A DNA stretch of 64,000 nt from Escherichia coli (GCF_013315695.1 NZ_CP054353.1), one strand, 5' to 3'. Positions 1-12,840 are shown, counted from the first letter of the stretch. The notes: a model not told the origin generated them from the sequence alone. Numbers and translations are program-made.

Positions 1-285
1 TCATACTTCAGAACACATACTCAATGTGTAAACAGCCATCTCTCCATCGGGATTAGAAGGGCGTAATACAAATATCGGTATACTGCCATTGTCAATGTAT
101 GTGGCTGCAACCCCTCCGTCAGGTGTAGCATACAAATCAAGTCCTTCACAAAACTCTTTTGCCGTAACCTTTTTAAGATGGTCAGCATATTTGATCATCT
201 GGAGGTGCATTTCCATCGTTTGGCTATTTCGTGGTGCGCTGCTAATGGCTTGCTTAATGTTCTCGTAGATCTGGGTTTCTGTCAT
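1..285 (-). CDS. Hypothetical protein, 94 aa, complete (stop at 1..3); not recognised
   Basis: Complete ORF in six-frame track; no motif I can assign. It is not the rcnR that I recall next to thiM in K-12 (wrong strand and sequence). Confidence 0.4.
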   Translation of the reverse strand: MTETQIYENIKQAISSAPRNSQTMEMHLQMIKYADHLKKVTAKEFCEGLDLYATPDGGVAATYIDNGSIPIFVLRPSNPDGEMAVYTLSMCSEV

Positions 286-317
286 TGTTTATCCCACCTA
301 TCAAATTTAGAAAAATA

Positions 318-339
318 ATATTAATTAGCTAATTAATAT
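318..339. promoter_or_regulatory. 22-bp perfect palindrome ATATTAATTAGCTAATTAATAT, candidate operator
   Basis: Read directly: sequence equals its own reverse complement over 22 bp; AT-rich, 33 bp upstream of the minus-strand ORF start at 285. Confidence 0.4.
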
Positions 340-497
340 AATCAATGGTTTTCACCATCTGAATGATAGTCGCTAATTGTTTCTTTTTCATTCCTTCTAT
401 GGGGTACAAAATGGGGTACACAGAGAAGAAGCAATTAATGGAGGCGAGCTTGCATCTGCAAGCCACTTCCCCTAAGCTGGCACAAAATATAGAGATT

Positions 498-631
498 CAA
501 CCAAACGACTCGGGGTGCCCTTCTGCGTGAAGGCTGAGAAATACCCGTATCACCTGATCTGGATAATGCCAGCGTAGGGAAGTCACGGACCACCAGGTCA
601 TTGCTTCTTCACGTTATGGCAGGAGCAAACT
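498..631 (+). promoter_or_regulatory. TPP (thiamine pyrophosphate) riboswitch, thi-box leader of thiM
   Basis: Conserved thi-box core CTGAGA...ACCTGATCTGGATAATGCCAGCGTAGGGAA immediately upstream of thiM start with RBS GGAG; matches the known thiM riboswitch from memory. Confidence 0.85.
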
Positions 632-1420
632 ATGCAAGTCGACCTGCTGAGTTCCGCGCAATCTGCGCACGCGTTACATCTTTTTCACAAACATTCCCCC
701 CTTGTGCACTGTATGACCAATGATGTGGTGCAAACCTTTACTGCCAATACCTTACTGGCGCTCGGTGCATCGCCAGCGATGGTCATCGAAACCGAAGAGG
801 CCAGTCAGTTTGCGGCAATCGCCAGTGCGTTGCTGATTAACGTTGGCACGCTGACGCAGCCACGCGCACAGGCGATGCGTGCCGCCGTTGAACAGGCAAA
901 ACGCTCTCAAACACCCTGGACGCTTGATCCAGTAGCGGTGGGTGCACTCGATTATCGCCGCCGTTTTTGTCTGGAACTTCTGTCTCATAAGCCAACCGCC
1001 ATACGTGGTAATGCTTCGGAAATCATGGCATTAGCTGGCGTTGCTAATGGCGGACGGGGAGTGGATACCACTGATGCCGCAGCTAACGCGATACCTGCTG
1101 CACAAACACTGGCACGGGAAACTGGCGCAATCGTCGTGGTCACTGGCGAGGTGGATTATGTTACCGATGGACATCGTATCGTTGGCATTCACGGTGGCGA
1201 TCCGCTAATGACCAAAGTGGTAGGAACTGGCTGTGCATTATCGGCGGTTGTCGCTGCCTGTTGTGCGCTACCAGGCGATACGCTGGAAAATATCGCATCT
1301 GCCTGTCACTGGATGAAACAAGCCGGAGAACGCGCAGTTGCCAGAAGCGAGGGGCCAGGCAGTTTTGTTCCACATTTCCTTGATGCGCTCTGGCAATTGA
1401 CGCAGGAGGTGCAGGCATGA
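632..1420 (+). CDS. thiM: Hydroxyethylthiazole kinase
   Basis: 262-aa ORF recognised as ThiM; preceded by TPP riboswitch; stop overlaps thiD start (ATGA). Confidence 0.9.
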
Positions 1421-2272: not shown

Positions 2273-3100
2273 ATGAAACCAATGCAGCTGAGAATCACCA
2301 GTCGAAAAAAATTCACCGCTTTATTATGCGCTCTTGGGCTAATTTCCATCGTTGCAATTTATCCGCGTCAGACGGTGAATTTTTTCTATTCGACAGCAAT
2401 TCAGATTAAAGACTACATCCACTTCTACGGTTATCGCCCGGTCAAATCTTTTGCTATTCGCATTCCTGCCAGTTACACCATTCATGGTATTGATGTTTCA
2501 CGCTGGCAGGAGCGAATCGACTGGCAGCGGGTGGCAAAAATGCGCGATAACGGTATTCGCTTACAATTTGCCTTTATTAAGGCGACGGAAGGCGAAAAGC
2601 TGGTGGACCCCTATTTTTCGCGTAACTGGCAACTAAGCCGCGAAAATGGCCTGCTGCGCGGGGCGTATCATTATTTTTCCCCGTCGGTATCCGCTTCAGT
2701 TCAGGCGAGATTATTTCTGCAAACGGTGGATTTCTCACAAGGCGATTTCCCTGCCGTGCTGGACGTAGAAGAACGGGGAAAATTATCGGCAAAAGAATTA
2801 CGCAAGCGGGTAAGTCAGTGGCTAAAAATGGTCGAAAAAAGTACGGGGAAAAAGCCGATTATTTACTCAGGAGCCGTTTTTTATCACACGAATCTGGCGG
2901 GCTATTTCAATGAATATCCGTGGTGGGTGGCTCACTACTATCAACGTCGTCCGGACAATGACGGCATGGCCTGGCGCTTCTGGCAGCATTCCGACCGTGG
3001 ACAGGTCGATGGCATTAATGGTCCGGTGGATTTTAATGTGTTTAATGGCACAGAGGAGGAGTTGCAGGGATTCGTTGATGGGATTAAAGAAACGCCTTAA
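2273..3100 (+). CDS. yegX: Glycoside hydrolase family 25 (lysozyme-like) protein
   Basis: 275-aa ORF with N-terminal hydrophobic segment; position after thiD matches K-12 yegX. Start codon uncertain (possibly a few codons downstream). Confidence 0.75.
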   Translation: MKPMQLRITSRKKFTALLCALGLISIVAIYPRQTVNFFYSTAIQIKDYIHFYGYRPVKSFAIRIPASYTIHGIDVSRWQERIDWQRVAKMRDNGIRLQFAFIKATEGEKLVDPYFSRNWQLSRENGLLRGAYHYFSPSVSASVQARLFLQTVDFSQGDFPAVLDVEERGKLSAKELRKRVSQWLKMVEKSTGKKPIIYSGAVFYHTNLAGYFNEYPWWVAHYYQRRPDNDGMAWRFWQHSDRGQVDGINGPVDFNVFNGTEEELQGFVDGIKETP

Positions 3101-3151
3101 ATAAGAAGCAGTGATATACTCCCACCAGACTCCCCGGCAGGAAAAAGACAA

Positions 3152-3898
3152 ATGGAACAAGCGCATACCCAGCTGATTGCCCAACTGAACGAACGTATTT
3201 TAGCGGCGGATAACACGCCGCTTTATATTAAGTTTGCCGAAACGGTAAAAAATGCCGTGCGCAGCGGGGTGCTGGAGCATGGCAATATTTTGCCCGGTGA
3301 GCGTGATTTAAGTCAGTTAACCGGCGTTTCGCGCATTACGGTGCGCAAGGCGATGCAGGCGCTGGAAGAAGAGGGCGTGGTGACGCGTTCGCGTGGTTAC
3401 GGCACGCAGATCAACAACATCTTCGAATACTCGCTGAAAGAAGCGCGGGGGTTTTCTCAGCAGGTGGTATTGCGCGGGAAAAAGCCCGATACGCTATGGG
3501 TTAACAAGCGTGTCGTGAAATGTCCCGAAGAAGTCGCGCAACAGCTGGCGGTCGAAGCGGGAAGTGATGTCTTTTTGCTTAAGCGTATTCGCTATGTCGA
3601 TGAAGAGGCGGTATCGATTGAGGAATCGTGGGTTCCGGCGCATTTAATTCATGATGTTGATGCCATCGGAATTTCTCTTTATGACTACTTCCGCAGCCAG
3701 CACATTTACCCACAACGTACGCGTTCCCGCGTTAGCGCCCGGATGCCGGATGCCGAGTTTCAGTCACATATTCAGTTAGATAGCAAAATACCGGTGCTGG
3801 TGATCAAGCAAGTGGCGCTTGACCAACAGCAACGGCCTATTGAGTACAGCATCAGCTACTGTCGCAGCGATCTATACGTTTTTGTGTGCGAGGAGTAG
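3152..3898 (+). CDS. yegW: GntR-family transcriptional regulator
   Basis: 248-aa ORF; N-terminal winged-HTH of GntR/HutC type (ILPGERDLSQLTGVSRITVRKA). Confidence 0.8.
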   Translation: MEQAHTQLIAQLNERILAADNTPLYIKFAETVKNAVRSGVLEHGNILPGERDLSQLTGVSRITVRKAMQALEEEGVVTRSRGYGTQINNIFEYSLKEARGFSQQVVLRGKKPDTLWVNKRVVKCPEEVAQQLAVEAGSDVFLLKRIRYVDEEAVSIEESWVPAHLIHDVDAIGISLYDYFRSQHIYPQRTRSRVSARMPDAEFQSHIQLDSKIPVLVIKQVALDQQQRPIEYSISYCRSDLYVFVCEE

Positions 3899-4837
3899 TT
3901 CCTCGCGCGTTGGCGCACAATCACCGCCCCGATGCCCGACAACCCACGACGCCACTGCATTGCCCAGTAATACGGCATCCGCCAGTGGCAGACCAGAGGC
4001 CAGCCCGGCAAGTACGCCGCCGGCATGACTGTCGCCCGCCCCAATGGTGTCTACAACTTGCGTTGGAAATGCCGGAATGCAGCCAGAAGCGTCGTTGCTG
4101 AAATACCATGCGCCCTCTTTATCGAGACGAATGATCAACGGCGCGGCAAATTTCTCCTGCCATTGCTTGCCTAGTGTTGTTATCTCTGCGGATAGAGCAA
4201 AACGTTCGGCGGCAATCTCAGCCTCCTGACGATTGAGTGACACTAAAGGTCGACAGGCCATGATCCGCGCCAGTAATACATCCGGGATATCGCCAATACG
4301 TGGGCCAAAATCGATAAACGGCGTCACGTCTTGCAGCTTTTCCAGCCATTCCACTAACAATTCGCCGCAGGGCGAGGCCAGTTGATAACCGGAAAAATAG
4401 AGCAGGCTGCCAGGCGCAACGGTTAATCGCGCCAGCCACTGGCGATTCCACTGATTTTCCACACCGCTGAATGACATAAAAGTGCGTTCGCCATCCGGCT
4501 CAACCAGCGCCAGACACCAGCCGTTATCACCTTCGGCGTTATCGATCAGGCTGATTAAGTCCTCTTTTGCCATCCGGTTGCGAATAATCTCCGCCCACAC
4601 CCCCTGACCGAGCGGCAAGGCATTACCCGCTTCGATGCCGAGGCGCTTTAATGCCACGGCAATATTCAGTGCACAGCCGCCAACGTTAACGCTCTGCTGT
4701 TTCAGTTCGATATCGCACCCACGCCAGGGGAGGGCATAAGCGTCGGCGATCACATCAATGACCGCCGCGCCGACGACCATCACCGGCTGACGCGTGGCTA
4801 ATTCAGGCAGCAGCGTGTGTAATCGAGCGCCGCTCAT
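3872..4837 (-). CDS. yegV: PfkB-family sugar kinase
   Basis: 321-aa ORF with ribokinase/PfkB-type motifs (DTIGAGD); convergent with and overlapping yegW by 27 nt. Confidence 0.8.
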   Translation of the reverse strand: MSGARLHTLLPELATRQPVMVVGAAVIDVIADAYALPWRGCDIELKQQSVNVGGCALNIAVALKRLGIEAGNALPLGQGVWAEIIRNRMAKEDLISLIDNAEGDNGWCLALVEPDGERTFMSFSGVENQWNRQWLARLTVAPGSLLYFSGYQLASPCGELLVEWLEKLQDVTPFIDFGPRIGDIPDVLLARIMACRPLVSLNRQEAEIAAERFALSAEITTLGKQWQEKFAAPLIIRLDKEGAWYFSNDASGCIPAFPTQVVDTIGAGDSHAGGVLAGLASGLPLADAVLLGNAVASWVVGHRGGDCAPTREELLLAHKNV

Positions 4838-8145: not shown

Positions 8146-9198
8146 ATGACAGATATTGCGCAGTTGCTTGGCAAAGACGCCGACAACCTTTTACAGCACC
8201 GTTGTATGACTATTCCTTCTGACCAGCTTTATCTCCCCGGACATGACTACGTAGACCGCGTGATGATTGACAATAATCGCCCGCCAGCGGTGTTACGTAA
8301 TATGCAGACGTTGTACAACACCGGGCGTCTGGCTGGCACAGGATATCTTTCTATTCTGCCGGTTGACCAGGGCGTTGAGCACTCTGCCGGAGCTTCATTT
8401 GCCGCTAACCCGCTCTACTTTGACCCGAAAAACATTGTTGAACTGGCGATCGAAGCGGGCTGTAACTGCGTGGCGTCAACTTACGGCGTGCTGGCATCGG
8501 TATCTCGGCGTTACGCGCATCGCATTCCATTCCTCGTCAAACTTAATCACAACGAGACGCTAAGTTACCCGAATACCTACGATCAAACGCTGTATGCCAG
8601 CGTGGAGCAGGCGTTCAATATGGGCGCGGTGGCGGTTGGGGCGACTATCTATTTTGGCTCGGAAGAGTCACGTCGCCAGATTGAAGAAATTTCTGCGGCT
8701 TTTGAACGTGCGCACGAGCTGGGCATGGTGACAGTGCTGTGGGCCTATTTGCGTAACTCCGCCTTTAAGAAAGATGGCGTTGATTACCATGTTTCCGCCG
8801 ACCTGACTGGTCAGGCGAACCATCTGGCGGCAACCATAGGTGCAGATATCGTCAAACAAAAAATGGCGGAAAATAACGGCGGCTATAAAGCGATTAATTA
8901 CGGTTATACCGACGATCGTGTTTACAGCAAATTGACCAGCGAAAACCCGATTGATCTGGTGCGTTATCAGTTAGCTAACTGCTATATGGGCCGGGCTGGG
9001 TTGATAAACTCCGGCGGTGCTGCGGGCGGTGAAACTGACCTCAGCGATGCAGTGCGTACTGCGGTTATCAACAAACGCGCTGGCGGAATGGGGCTGATTC
9101 TTGGACGTAAGGCGTTCAAGAAATCGATGGCTGACGGCGTGAAACTGATTAACGCCGTGCAGGACGTTTATCTCGATAGCAAAATTACTATCGCCTGA
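8146..9198 (+). CDS. fbaB: Fructose-bisphosphate aldolase class I
   Basis: ORF 8074..9198 recognised as FbaB; start placed at internal [10 protein letters not shown] (350 aa) as in K-12 from memory. Confidence 0.85.
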
Positions 9199-9371: not shown

Positions 9372-11571
<2,200 letters not shown>

Positions 11572-12130: not shown

Positions 12131-12552
12131 CCTCGCGCATACAGCCGGGCAGTGACGTCATCGTCTGCGCGGAAATGGACGAACAGTGGGGCTATGTCGG
12201 GGCTAAATCGCGCCAGCGCTGGCTGTTTTACGCGTATGACAGGCTCCGGAAGACGGTTGTTGCGCACGTATTCGGTGAACGCACTATGGCGACGCTGGGG
12301 CGTCTTATGAGCCTGCTGTCACCCTTTGACGTGGTGATATGGATGACGGATGGCTGGCCGCTGTATGAATCCCGCCTGAAGGGAAAGCTGCACGTAATCA
12401 GCAAGCGATATACGCAGCGAATTGAGCGGCATAACCTGAATCTGAGGCAGCACCTGGCACGGCTGGGACGGAAGTCGCTGTCGTTCTCAAAATCGGTGGA
12501 GCTGCATGACAAAGTCATCGGGCATTATCTGAACATAAAACACTATCAATAA
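12049..12552 (+). CDS. insB: IS1 InsB'
   Basis: 167-aa ORF in the -1 frame relative to insA, identical to copy 1. Confidence 0.9.
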
Positions 12553-12840
12553 GTTGGAGTCATTACCTCAGCCATTTATCTGTTAAGGCCAACAAATAAA
12601 GTTCATTTTCAGCAAGCGGATGATGATAACGACGTGGCGGTATCGTTGGTTATTGCGTTGATTGTGGAAAATCCGCAGCAGCAATTGAAACTTTTACGCT
12701 GTTTATTTGGCAAGTTACAACAGCCCGATATCGTCGAGACACTAATTACTCTTCCTGAAACTCAGTTAAAGGAATACTTCACAAAGTATGTTTTAGATTC
12801 AGACGAATAAATCCCTCTGTAACAATAAAAAGGACTGTTT

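Follow-up and report, generated by a model that had tools for sequence, protein, structure and literature searches.

A probable rptR-orf115 deletion chimera and its orphaned RptR operator at the edge of a defence island in the thiM riboswitch aptamer of Escherichia coli

The first 285 nucleotides of a 64,000-nucleotide stretch of Escherichia coli DNA (NZ_CP054353.1; the whole stretch is called the window below) contain a minus-strand open reading frame (ORF) that most likely represents a deletion chimera, in which the 5' part of rptR is fused to the 3' part of an unrelated gene, orf115. Upstream of it lies an RptR operator without its repressor, and both stand at the edge of a defence island that occupies the aptamer of the thiM riboswitch. 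We put the probability of this reading at roughly 85%. The repressor family and its operator were already known, and the ORF is a decayed copy with an orphaned operator. An initial annotation of the window had assigned the operator to the family of the adjacent gene and had placed the pair at a variable junction with partner genes, if any, outside the window, all of which stands; it had also treated the family as unrecognised and the gene as intact, neither of which does. The features to which the text refers are listed here by window position.

1-285, minus strand: chimeric 94-aa ORF, rptR' fused in frame to 'orf115 (two PHROG families, one per half).
1-141, minus strand: orf115-derived part, codons 49-94 plus stop (identity to P0009).
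About 133-137, minus strand: scar of a further 27-bp in-frame deletion (P0001 and strain MS 21-1 have 27 extra bases).
142-285, minus strand: rptR-derived part, codons 1-48, corresponding to RptR helices alpha1-alpha3 (Pfam, 9R2Z and P0005 alignments).
143-497, no strand: conserved right-end block, with the 5' half of rptR, promoter/operator, repeats and outward-facing leader (genome search).
308-313, no strand: degenerate second RptR box TAGAAA, on the gene side of the core at a distance of 18 bp (two 9-bp repeat units).
318-339, no strand: perfect 22-bp palindrome ATATTAATTAGCTAATTAATAT with 11-bp arms (sequence, simulations).
326-331, no strand: TAGCTA core, the RptR minimal site, TTAGCTAA being the published repeat core (PMC12255303).
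318-345, minus strand: candidate sigma-70 promoter, -35 TTGATT (345-340), 16-bp spacer with TAGCTA, -10 TAATAT (323-318), assigned by eye.
363-335, minus strand: alternative candidate promoter TTCAGA-17-TATATT (promoter scan).
399-420, plus strand: two direct copies of ATGGGGTACA, 12 bp apart, candidate integrase arm-type sites (repeat search).
448-463, no strand: inverted repeat GCTTGC-ATCT-GCAAGC (stem conserved, loops differing in diverged copies).
498-579, plus strand: att core, 82 bp of the TPP aptamer (attL/attR alignment, exact repeat at the integrase end).
501-597, plus strand: intact thiM TPP riboswitch aptamer (71.2 bits, gathering score 54.3).
632-1420, plus strand: thiM (hydroxyethylthiazole kinase), followed by thiD and yegX (ORF listing, MS 21-1 annotation).

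The ORF is complete, as had been claimed for it, with ATG at 285-283, TGA at window bases 3-1, and a Shine-Dalgarno-like AGGTGGG, read from the sequence, 7 nt upstream of the ATG. An exact-sequence look-up showed that the 94-aa product is identical to WP_174183221.1 / QKM90650.1, an E. coli 'hypothetical protein' on record from one contig only. The initial annotation found no family that it could name, whereas the N-terminal half belongs to a characterized one. Pfam HTH_73 (PF24718) matches aa 2-51 with E=1.4e-17, covering model positions 1-50 of 71 only, and residues 1-52 of PDB entry 9R2Z chain A (RptR) match the same half with E=6.8e-17. Compared with an intact 79-aa copy from a thiM island (P0005), which itself aligns with 9R2Z residues 1-77 (E=2.3e-31), the ORF is 91% identical across aa 1-54. 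RptR was the sole significant PDB relative, as matches to Ika8 and Ika4 contained no stretch passing threshold, and the resemblance to RptR and HTH_73 is confined to the N-terminal 50-53 residues. Among 5.8 billion proteins searched, 142 relatives were found, almost all of them 79 aa long, from Gammaproteobacteria and often named 'transcription factor', with query coverage of ~54-57%. No Xre-type HTH or other Pfam match besides HTH_73 was detected in the 94-aa ORF, no NCBIfam family was found for it, and PADLOC returned no match for the ORF, intact RptR or orf115.

The remainder of the ORF has a different origin. Within the PHROGs, phrog_30666 corresponds to aa 1-53 (E=2.8e-34) and phrog_35183 to the tail, and the C-terminal 44 residues are identical at 43 of 44 positions (98%) to residues 72-115 of the orf115 product (P0009), a 115-aa Escherichia protein that has an N-terminal signal-peptide-like segment and no Pfam domain. 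A 103-aa form of the ORF (P0001; also in MS 21-1) reads ...KEFCEG followed by LDFVGQKSIAKMYATPDGG..., being of RptR type through Gly48 and of P0009 sequence thereafter; in P0009 the joined sequence begins after ...WR, as LDFVGKKSIAKM.... DNA alignment showed that the window allele differs from the 103-aa form solely by a 27-bp in-frame deletion between two TGTA microrepeats. DNA homology with other thiM islands ends at base 143, and those islands match window 143-640 only. The orf115-derived segment was found in 69 E. coli genomes, most of which have it within an intact orf115. In the undeleted layout (E. coli loci L014-L018), orf115 and rptR are separate genes on the same strand, ~4.5 kb apart; an E. 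albertii contig (L003) has the order rcnR-int-HNH-orf115-... and stops short of rptR. The MS 21-1 copy has been flagged by PGAP as a pseudogene, 'incomplete; missing C-terminus'. These comparisons indicate that the 94-aa ORF is a derived chimera made by deletion.

RptR (RMS-proximal transcriptional regulator) is a 79-aa homodimeric autorepressor from the RRDM island of EPEC E2348/69, where rptR stands first in a type I R-M/DarTG2 defence island (Zhang et al., Nucleic Acids Res 2025, PMC12255303). Its crystal structure has been determined (9R2Z); helix alpha4 provides the modelled DNA contacts (T57-K61, with E58 and K61 invariant), and nearly all reported contacts of the dimer interface lie in alpha4 and the C-terminus (L65, R68, L69, A72, L74) (PMC12255303). 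The window ORF departs from the full four-helix architecture of ~79 aa, as RptR homology ends at residue 48-52 and both alpha4 and the C-terminal dimer interface are missing. Because it lacks these elements, the chimera would be expected neither to dimerise in the manner of RptR nor to contact DNA, and presumably cannot act as RptR. For the same reason, and in view of the published structure and the L74R and S60G mutants, autoregulation by its own product is not expected; homodimerisation, box binding and promoter repression are all predicted to be negative.

The reading frame was kept through two deletions, each in-frame outcome being a 1-in-3 chance, and it follows a good ribosome-binding site, so some residual or new activity of the chimera may be allowed for. 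It is nonetheless quite improbable that the chimera has gained a new role, for example by titrating an RptR partner or a phage trigger through alpha1-alpha3, or as a decoy. The preserved frame and intact expression signals favor such a role, and the lineage is not rare among draft assemblies, the 103-aa form being on record from 350 contigs, yet from 3 of 5426 complete E. coli genomes. However, evidence of selection is lacking, the copies are near-identical and the contig count may represent one clone; half of a secreted protein's domain is unlikely to fold without its signal peptide; and no other rptR that might be modulated was found inside the 64-kb window. Still less credence is due to the proposal of the initial annotation, a small autoregulated accessory gene, here taken as an intact and unrecognised autoregulator whose dimer would bind the 22-bp palindrome. 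While completeness of the ORF, its ribosome-binding site, a frame that outlasted two deletions and the overlap of the palindrome with candidate promoters are all compatible with it, the ORF consists of halves from two unrelated families, the RptR-like half has lost the recognition and dimerisation helix, and the C-terminal half comes from a signal-peptide protein whose signal peptide is now gone. Moreover, the allele is on one contig, and only 3 complete genomes have the 103-aa form, whereas 563 have the module.

The palindrome ATATTAATTAGCTAATTAATAT, located 33 bp upstream of the start codon of the ORF, was confirmed as perfect over 22 bp and is the longest in the window, where the runner-up has 7-bp arms. 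When the whole window was simulated 100 times with a first-order Markov model, arms of at least 11 bp arose in 2 runs; for the local stretch 286-400, with 25% GC, such arms arose in 0.035% of runs (P=3.5e-4). No match to the palindrome with up to 3 mismatches was present in 100 dinucleotide shuffles. Five diverged thiM-adjacent copies (window, strain 135, L014, O157:H7 EDL933 and C41(DE3); 85-89% identical overall, with differences of up to ~15%) share an invariant 12-bp core, AATTAGCTAATT; outer arm positions vary, and in EDL933 and C41 conservation is lost over the outermost 5 bp of both arms. By this comparison, the conserved element is shorter than the full 22-bp symmetry, on which the earlier description had relied. 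Its suggestion that such a palindrome is a site for a dimeric repressor was nevertheless sound in principle, as the center, TAGCTA, is the minimal site of the dimeric autorepressor RptR.

In EPEC, this minimal site is a 6-bp palindrome that resides inside 9-bp repeats, TTTAGCTAA, overlapping the -10 element, and EMSA and reporter assays demonstrated that RptR binds the motif (PMC12255303). The dimer was modelled on the 6-bp site in one groove with AlphaFold 3 and checked by EMSA and mutants; full repression needs two boxes, and single-box binding is poor (PMC12255303). In the window, TAGCTA lies 41-46 bp before the ATG and within both candidate promoters, which is the placement of an RptR box within its promoter. 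This position is conserved at 19 of 20 rptR loci, the exception (L019) having TTGCTA together with the accepted variant TATCTA. The two boxes of Pseudoalteromonas form a perfect 26-bp palindrome, and one of the two boxes in Vibrio is TAGATA. The same variant occupies the position of the degenerate window box TAGAAA in EDL933 and Atlantibacter, both the accepted variants and the 9-bp register being taken from the EPEC study (PMC12255303). A search of 286-497 found no second accepted box, which leaves the window with one box rather than two. Because the thiM locus has a single canonical box and published single-box binding is poor, even intact RptR copies at this locus may be weak autoregulators. 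Both candidate promoters of the ORF overlap the palindrome; their hexamers were assigned from sequence, with the EPEC RptR boxes that overlap the -10 as a parallel, and they are best regarded as provisional. Another TTAGCTAA box was noted at window positions 8968-8981, where it forms part of a 14-bp palindrome, CAGTTAGCTAACTG, with no rptR nearby. Other E. coli loci have it at the corresponding position, which seems to fall in the fbaB region, and it is most likely a chance occurrence in core sequence.

Two other interpretations of the palindrome were considered. It could be a recombination site of the island, bound by the integrase (as an arm site), an excisionase or IHF, and not a transcriptional operator: it sits 160 bp from the att core in the island arm, direct repeats are close by (399-420), and AT-rich symmetric DNA is typical of IHF/Xis regions. 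This is very improbable, since TTAGCTAA is equally spaced before rptR in type I R-M operons of Vibrio and Pseudoalteromonas, which have no adjacent thiM-type att, since the motif is bound by RptR in the published assays (PMC12255303), and since short islands with this integrase family in other genera (L033, L045, L064) have no rptR between their two aptamer copies. That the palindrome is instead a functionless chance product of AT-rich intergenic DNA, as the local GC of 25% and the unconserved outer 5 bp in EDL933 and C41 might suggest, is scarcely credible given the low frequency of such arms in local simulations, a 12-bp core that is invariant among diverged copies and conserved across genera, and its coincidence with an experimentally defined binding site. 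An RptR operator remains the preferred identification of this element.

RptR homologues occur in several genetic settings, type I R-M being associated with 54 of 117 of them only (PMC12255303). The intact rptR of Vibrio lentus and Pseudoalteromonas precedes hsdM by 33 bp in type I operons into which defence cargo is embedded, an arrangement also described for the family in the EPEC study (PMC12255303). The rptR-headed operons of these hosts (L007-L013) carry variable cargo between hsdS and hsdR, comprising GmrSD, AAA_15/DUF3696, DarT-Macro and SLFN/AlbA_2, and their HsdM proteins are unusually long, at 821-826 aa. Intact homologues in Pantoea dispersa (L022) and Buttiauxella (L023-L024), with the gene at 10001-10240, lie within ~10-kb elements that resemble phage satellites, with an integrase directly or a short way upstream, numerous small ORFs and a major-capsid-protein-E gene. 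There, rptR is not beside a type I R-M operon, and a TTAGCTAA box is nonetheless present ~40 bp upstream.

The genomic surroundings of the ORF were reconstructed from relatives. In MS 21-1 the order is rcnR, a copy of the TPP aptamer, a 435-aa tyrosine integrase, an HNH endonuclease, the chimeric ORF, the TPP riboswitch and thiM. MS 21-1 equals the window in every alignable column of 1-640, the 27-bp indel aside, and the island content to the left of the window start, taken from that strain, is probably the same. The partner genes that had been proposed to lie beyond the window start would then be the tyrosine integrase and the HNH enzyme, which matches type IV methyl-directed restriction models. 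In MS 21-1 the gene after the chimeric ORF is this HNH endonuclease, in convergent orientation, and the ORF does not occupy the place of the first gene of a defence operon. The ORF is not rcnR, as had been recognized, and in relatives rcnR is found beyond the inserted island. Strain 135 and many other genomes have a longer island, with int, GmrSD, orf115, an Xre-type regulator, a resolvase, an HTH_36 protein and intact rptR, and the general layout is rcnR - aptamer copy - integrase - cargo - rptR - aptamer - thiM.

An exact repeat of 82 bp flanks the island in MS 21-1 and strain 135, of which only the attR copy (498-579) is inside the window; in both strains, the integrase begins 67 bp past the attL aptamer copy, and in L001 the repeat copies are at 9597-9678 and 12525-12606. 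Flanking repeats with an adjacent integrase are the arrangement of a site-specific integrative island, and a presence/absence polymorphism at a fixed site, with the same target used in other hosts, was found as well. The thiM aptamer itself serves as the attachment site, and the strain-variable junction of the initial annotation is the integration site of this island beside thiM. The right-end block (143-497) was found in 563 of 5426 complete E. coli genomes (~10%) and adjoins the thiM riboswitch in every copy examined, including integrase-less remnants in O157:H7 EDL933 and the BL21-derived C41(DE3). Judging from these alignments, a small defence island carrying an integrase has inserted in the thiM aptamer, and window 143-497 forms its end nearest thiM. 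An 'rcnR-thiM' island with type IV R-M appears in the supplement of Hochhauser et al. (2023), a paper in which the riboswitch goes unmentioned (PMC10121019).

The island arm next to the att core contains both the ATGGGGTACA repeats and the GCTTGC-N4-GCAAGC repeat. One or two copies of ATGGGGTACA are kept in EDL933, C41 and Atlantibacter, and none was found on the integrase-side arm of L001; their identification as integrase arm-type sites is a guess from position and sequence. Positions 425-435 (GAAGAAGCAAT) can pair at 11 of 11 bases with 600-610, the anti-SD region of thiM, and 12 of 13 bases of 470-482 are complementary to 567-579 in the aptamer's 3' part. The former pairing is not conserved in EDL933 or C41 and the latter loses a pair in C41; interference of the island leader with the riboswitch through these pairings was considered and dropped, as their conservation is poor and they are probably chance or by-products of promoter sequence. 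A consensus scan of 1-700 found no plus-strand thiM promoter. By eye, a weak plus-strand candidate, TTGCAT-17-TAAGCT (450-478), may be discerned, for which C41(DE3) has TTGCAA-17-TAATCT. Where the island is present, island DNA precedes thiM, whose native promoter region has stayed at attL, before the integrase.

Relatives of the integrase, gathered with one genome per species, revealed the breadth of this target choice. In 22 of 23 close relatives (64-84% identity, ~16 enterobacterial genera; L025-L047), int is preceded at a distance of ~85 bp by the end of an aptamer-core copy, and the far island end, where visible, has a full-scoring aptamer followed by thiM. Host and island sequences diverge right after GCCAGCGTAG(GG) in 20 relatives. 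The attL aptamer copies score 55-64 bits and have a broken P1, and the consensus fold of 20 attL-to-int leaders contains P2/P3 and P4/P5 only, with neither P1 nor a conserved helix between the aptamer and the int ribosome-binding site. Control of the integrase by TPP was considered and is unsupported, the attL copies having a broken P1 and no conserved linking structure.

Distant integrase relatives (29-36% identity) from marine Gammaproteobacteria lie directly 3' of rnpB, the RNase P RNA gene, at 12 loci (L048-L055, L057-L059, L061), with the rnpB region at ~3000-3915 and int at ~4001 in each; the hosts include Methylophaga, Marinomonas, Microbulbifer and Oleiphilus. A partial second rnpB copy is present at 7140-7342 of L049. 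This arrangement suggests that rnpB may be the attachment site of the distant relatives. An incomplete literature search found no paper describing a riboswitch or rnpB as an attachment site. A broader scheme, in which aptamer attachment extends across Enterobacterales with a sister group at rnpB and integration newly couples the integrase or thiM to TPP, is unlikely as a whole, the regulatory coupling being speculative. If true, it would mean that the native thiM promoter and an aptamer copy precede the integrase, and that thiM depends on a promoter and leader supplied by the island.

The following history of the locus would account for the chimera and its orphaned operator. One end of the island would originally have had an rptR reading into the island from a promoter with a TAGCTA operator and a degenerate box 18 bp away. 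The 79-aa RptR of intact copies would, as a dimer, place two alpha4 helices into one major groove at TAGCTA and thus repress its own promoter along with whatever cargo follows. An internal deletion of several kb would then have fused the 3'-terminal 56 codons of orf115, in frame, to codon 48 of rptR, and a later 27-bp slippage deletion between the TGTA microrepeats would have yielded the 94-aa product, which retains alpha1-alpha3 and is without alpha4 and the C-terminus. These events would have orphaned the operator. Barring a further rptR at some other genomic location, the promoter probably drives a junk fusion ORF constitutively.

With these findings, a 'hypothetical protein' can be annotated as a wrecked rptR, the palindrome as a published RptR operator without its repressor, and the strain-variable junction beside thiM is explained by an island. 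Of the complete E. coli genomes, ~10%, O157:H7 and BL21 derivatives among them, have island-derived sequence in place of the native promoter region directly upstream of the thiM riboswitch, and work on thiM regulation in island-bearing strains should allow for this replaced upstream region. The structured-RNA loci that serve as attachment sites also gain a riboswitch aptamer, the target of this integrase lineage, whose distant relatives lie at rnpB; this may be relevant to island-finding tools.

The locus may be compared with several known systems. It shares with EPEC RptR the homologous N-terminal residues 1-52, a defence-island context and a promoter in which a TAGCTA / TTAGCTAA box lies ~41-46 bp before the start and overlaps promoter elements. 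In contrast to EPEC RptR, the window ORF ends its RptR sequence after residue 48 and continues with a foreign tail instead of alpha4; it has one canonical box where EPEC has three, and no type I R-M operon downstream; and it is situated at the att end of an integrase island, whereas the EPEC gene lies between IS elements. Closer counterparts are the intact 79-81-aa 'HTH-like domain-containing proteins' encoded beside thiM in ~10% of E. coli genomes, at the same locus and with the same promoter/operator block (EDL933 WP_000141034.1, BL21/C41 WP_001318412.1, strain 135 WP_059327986.1). The closest of these are at least 91% identical to the shared N-terminal part of the window ORF, but they are full length with alpha4, and several have a second box, TAGATA, 18 or 9 bp from TAGCTA.

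Controller (C) proteins of type II R-M systems, such as C.PvuII and C.AhdI, are likewise small dimeric autoregulators that head a restriction operon and act on palindromic boxes in their own promoter. They use an Xre/lambda-cI-type HTH and ~35-bp C-boxes that span two major grooves, whereas RptR is unrelated in sequence and is modelled on a 6-bp site in a single groove; the 94-aa ORF has neither the Xre-type fold nor a C-box operator. As for the island, integrative elements that target tRNA or tmRNA genes, with which Williams 2002 is reportedly linked, carry a tyrosine integrase beside attL. The thiM island resembles them in that its integrase adjoins one copy of a duplicated and highly conserved structured-RNA sequence and the target is restored at the other end, and it shares with them and with the 'rcnR-thiM' island the presence/absence polymorphism and defence cargo. 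It differs in its target, which is a riboswitch aptamer within a 5' leader and not a tRNA gene.
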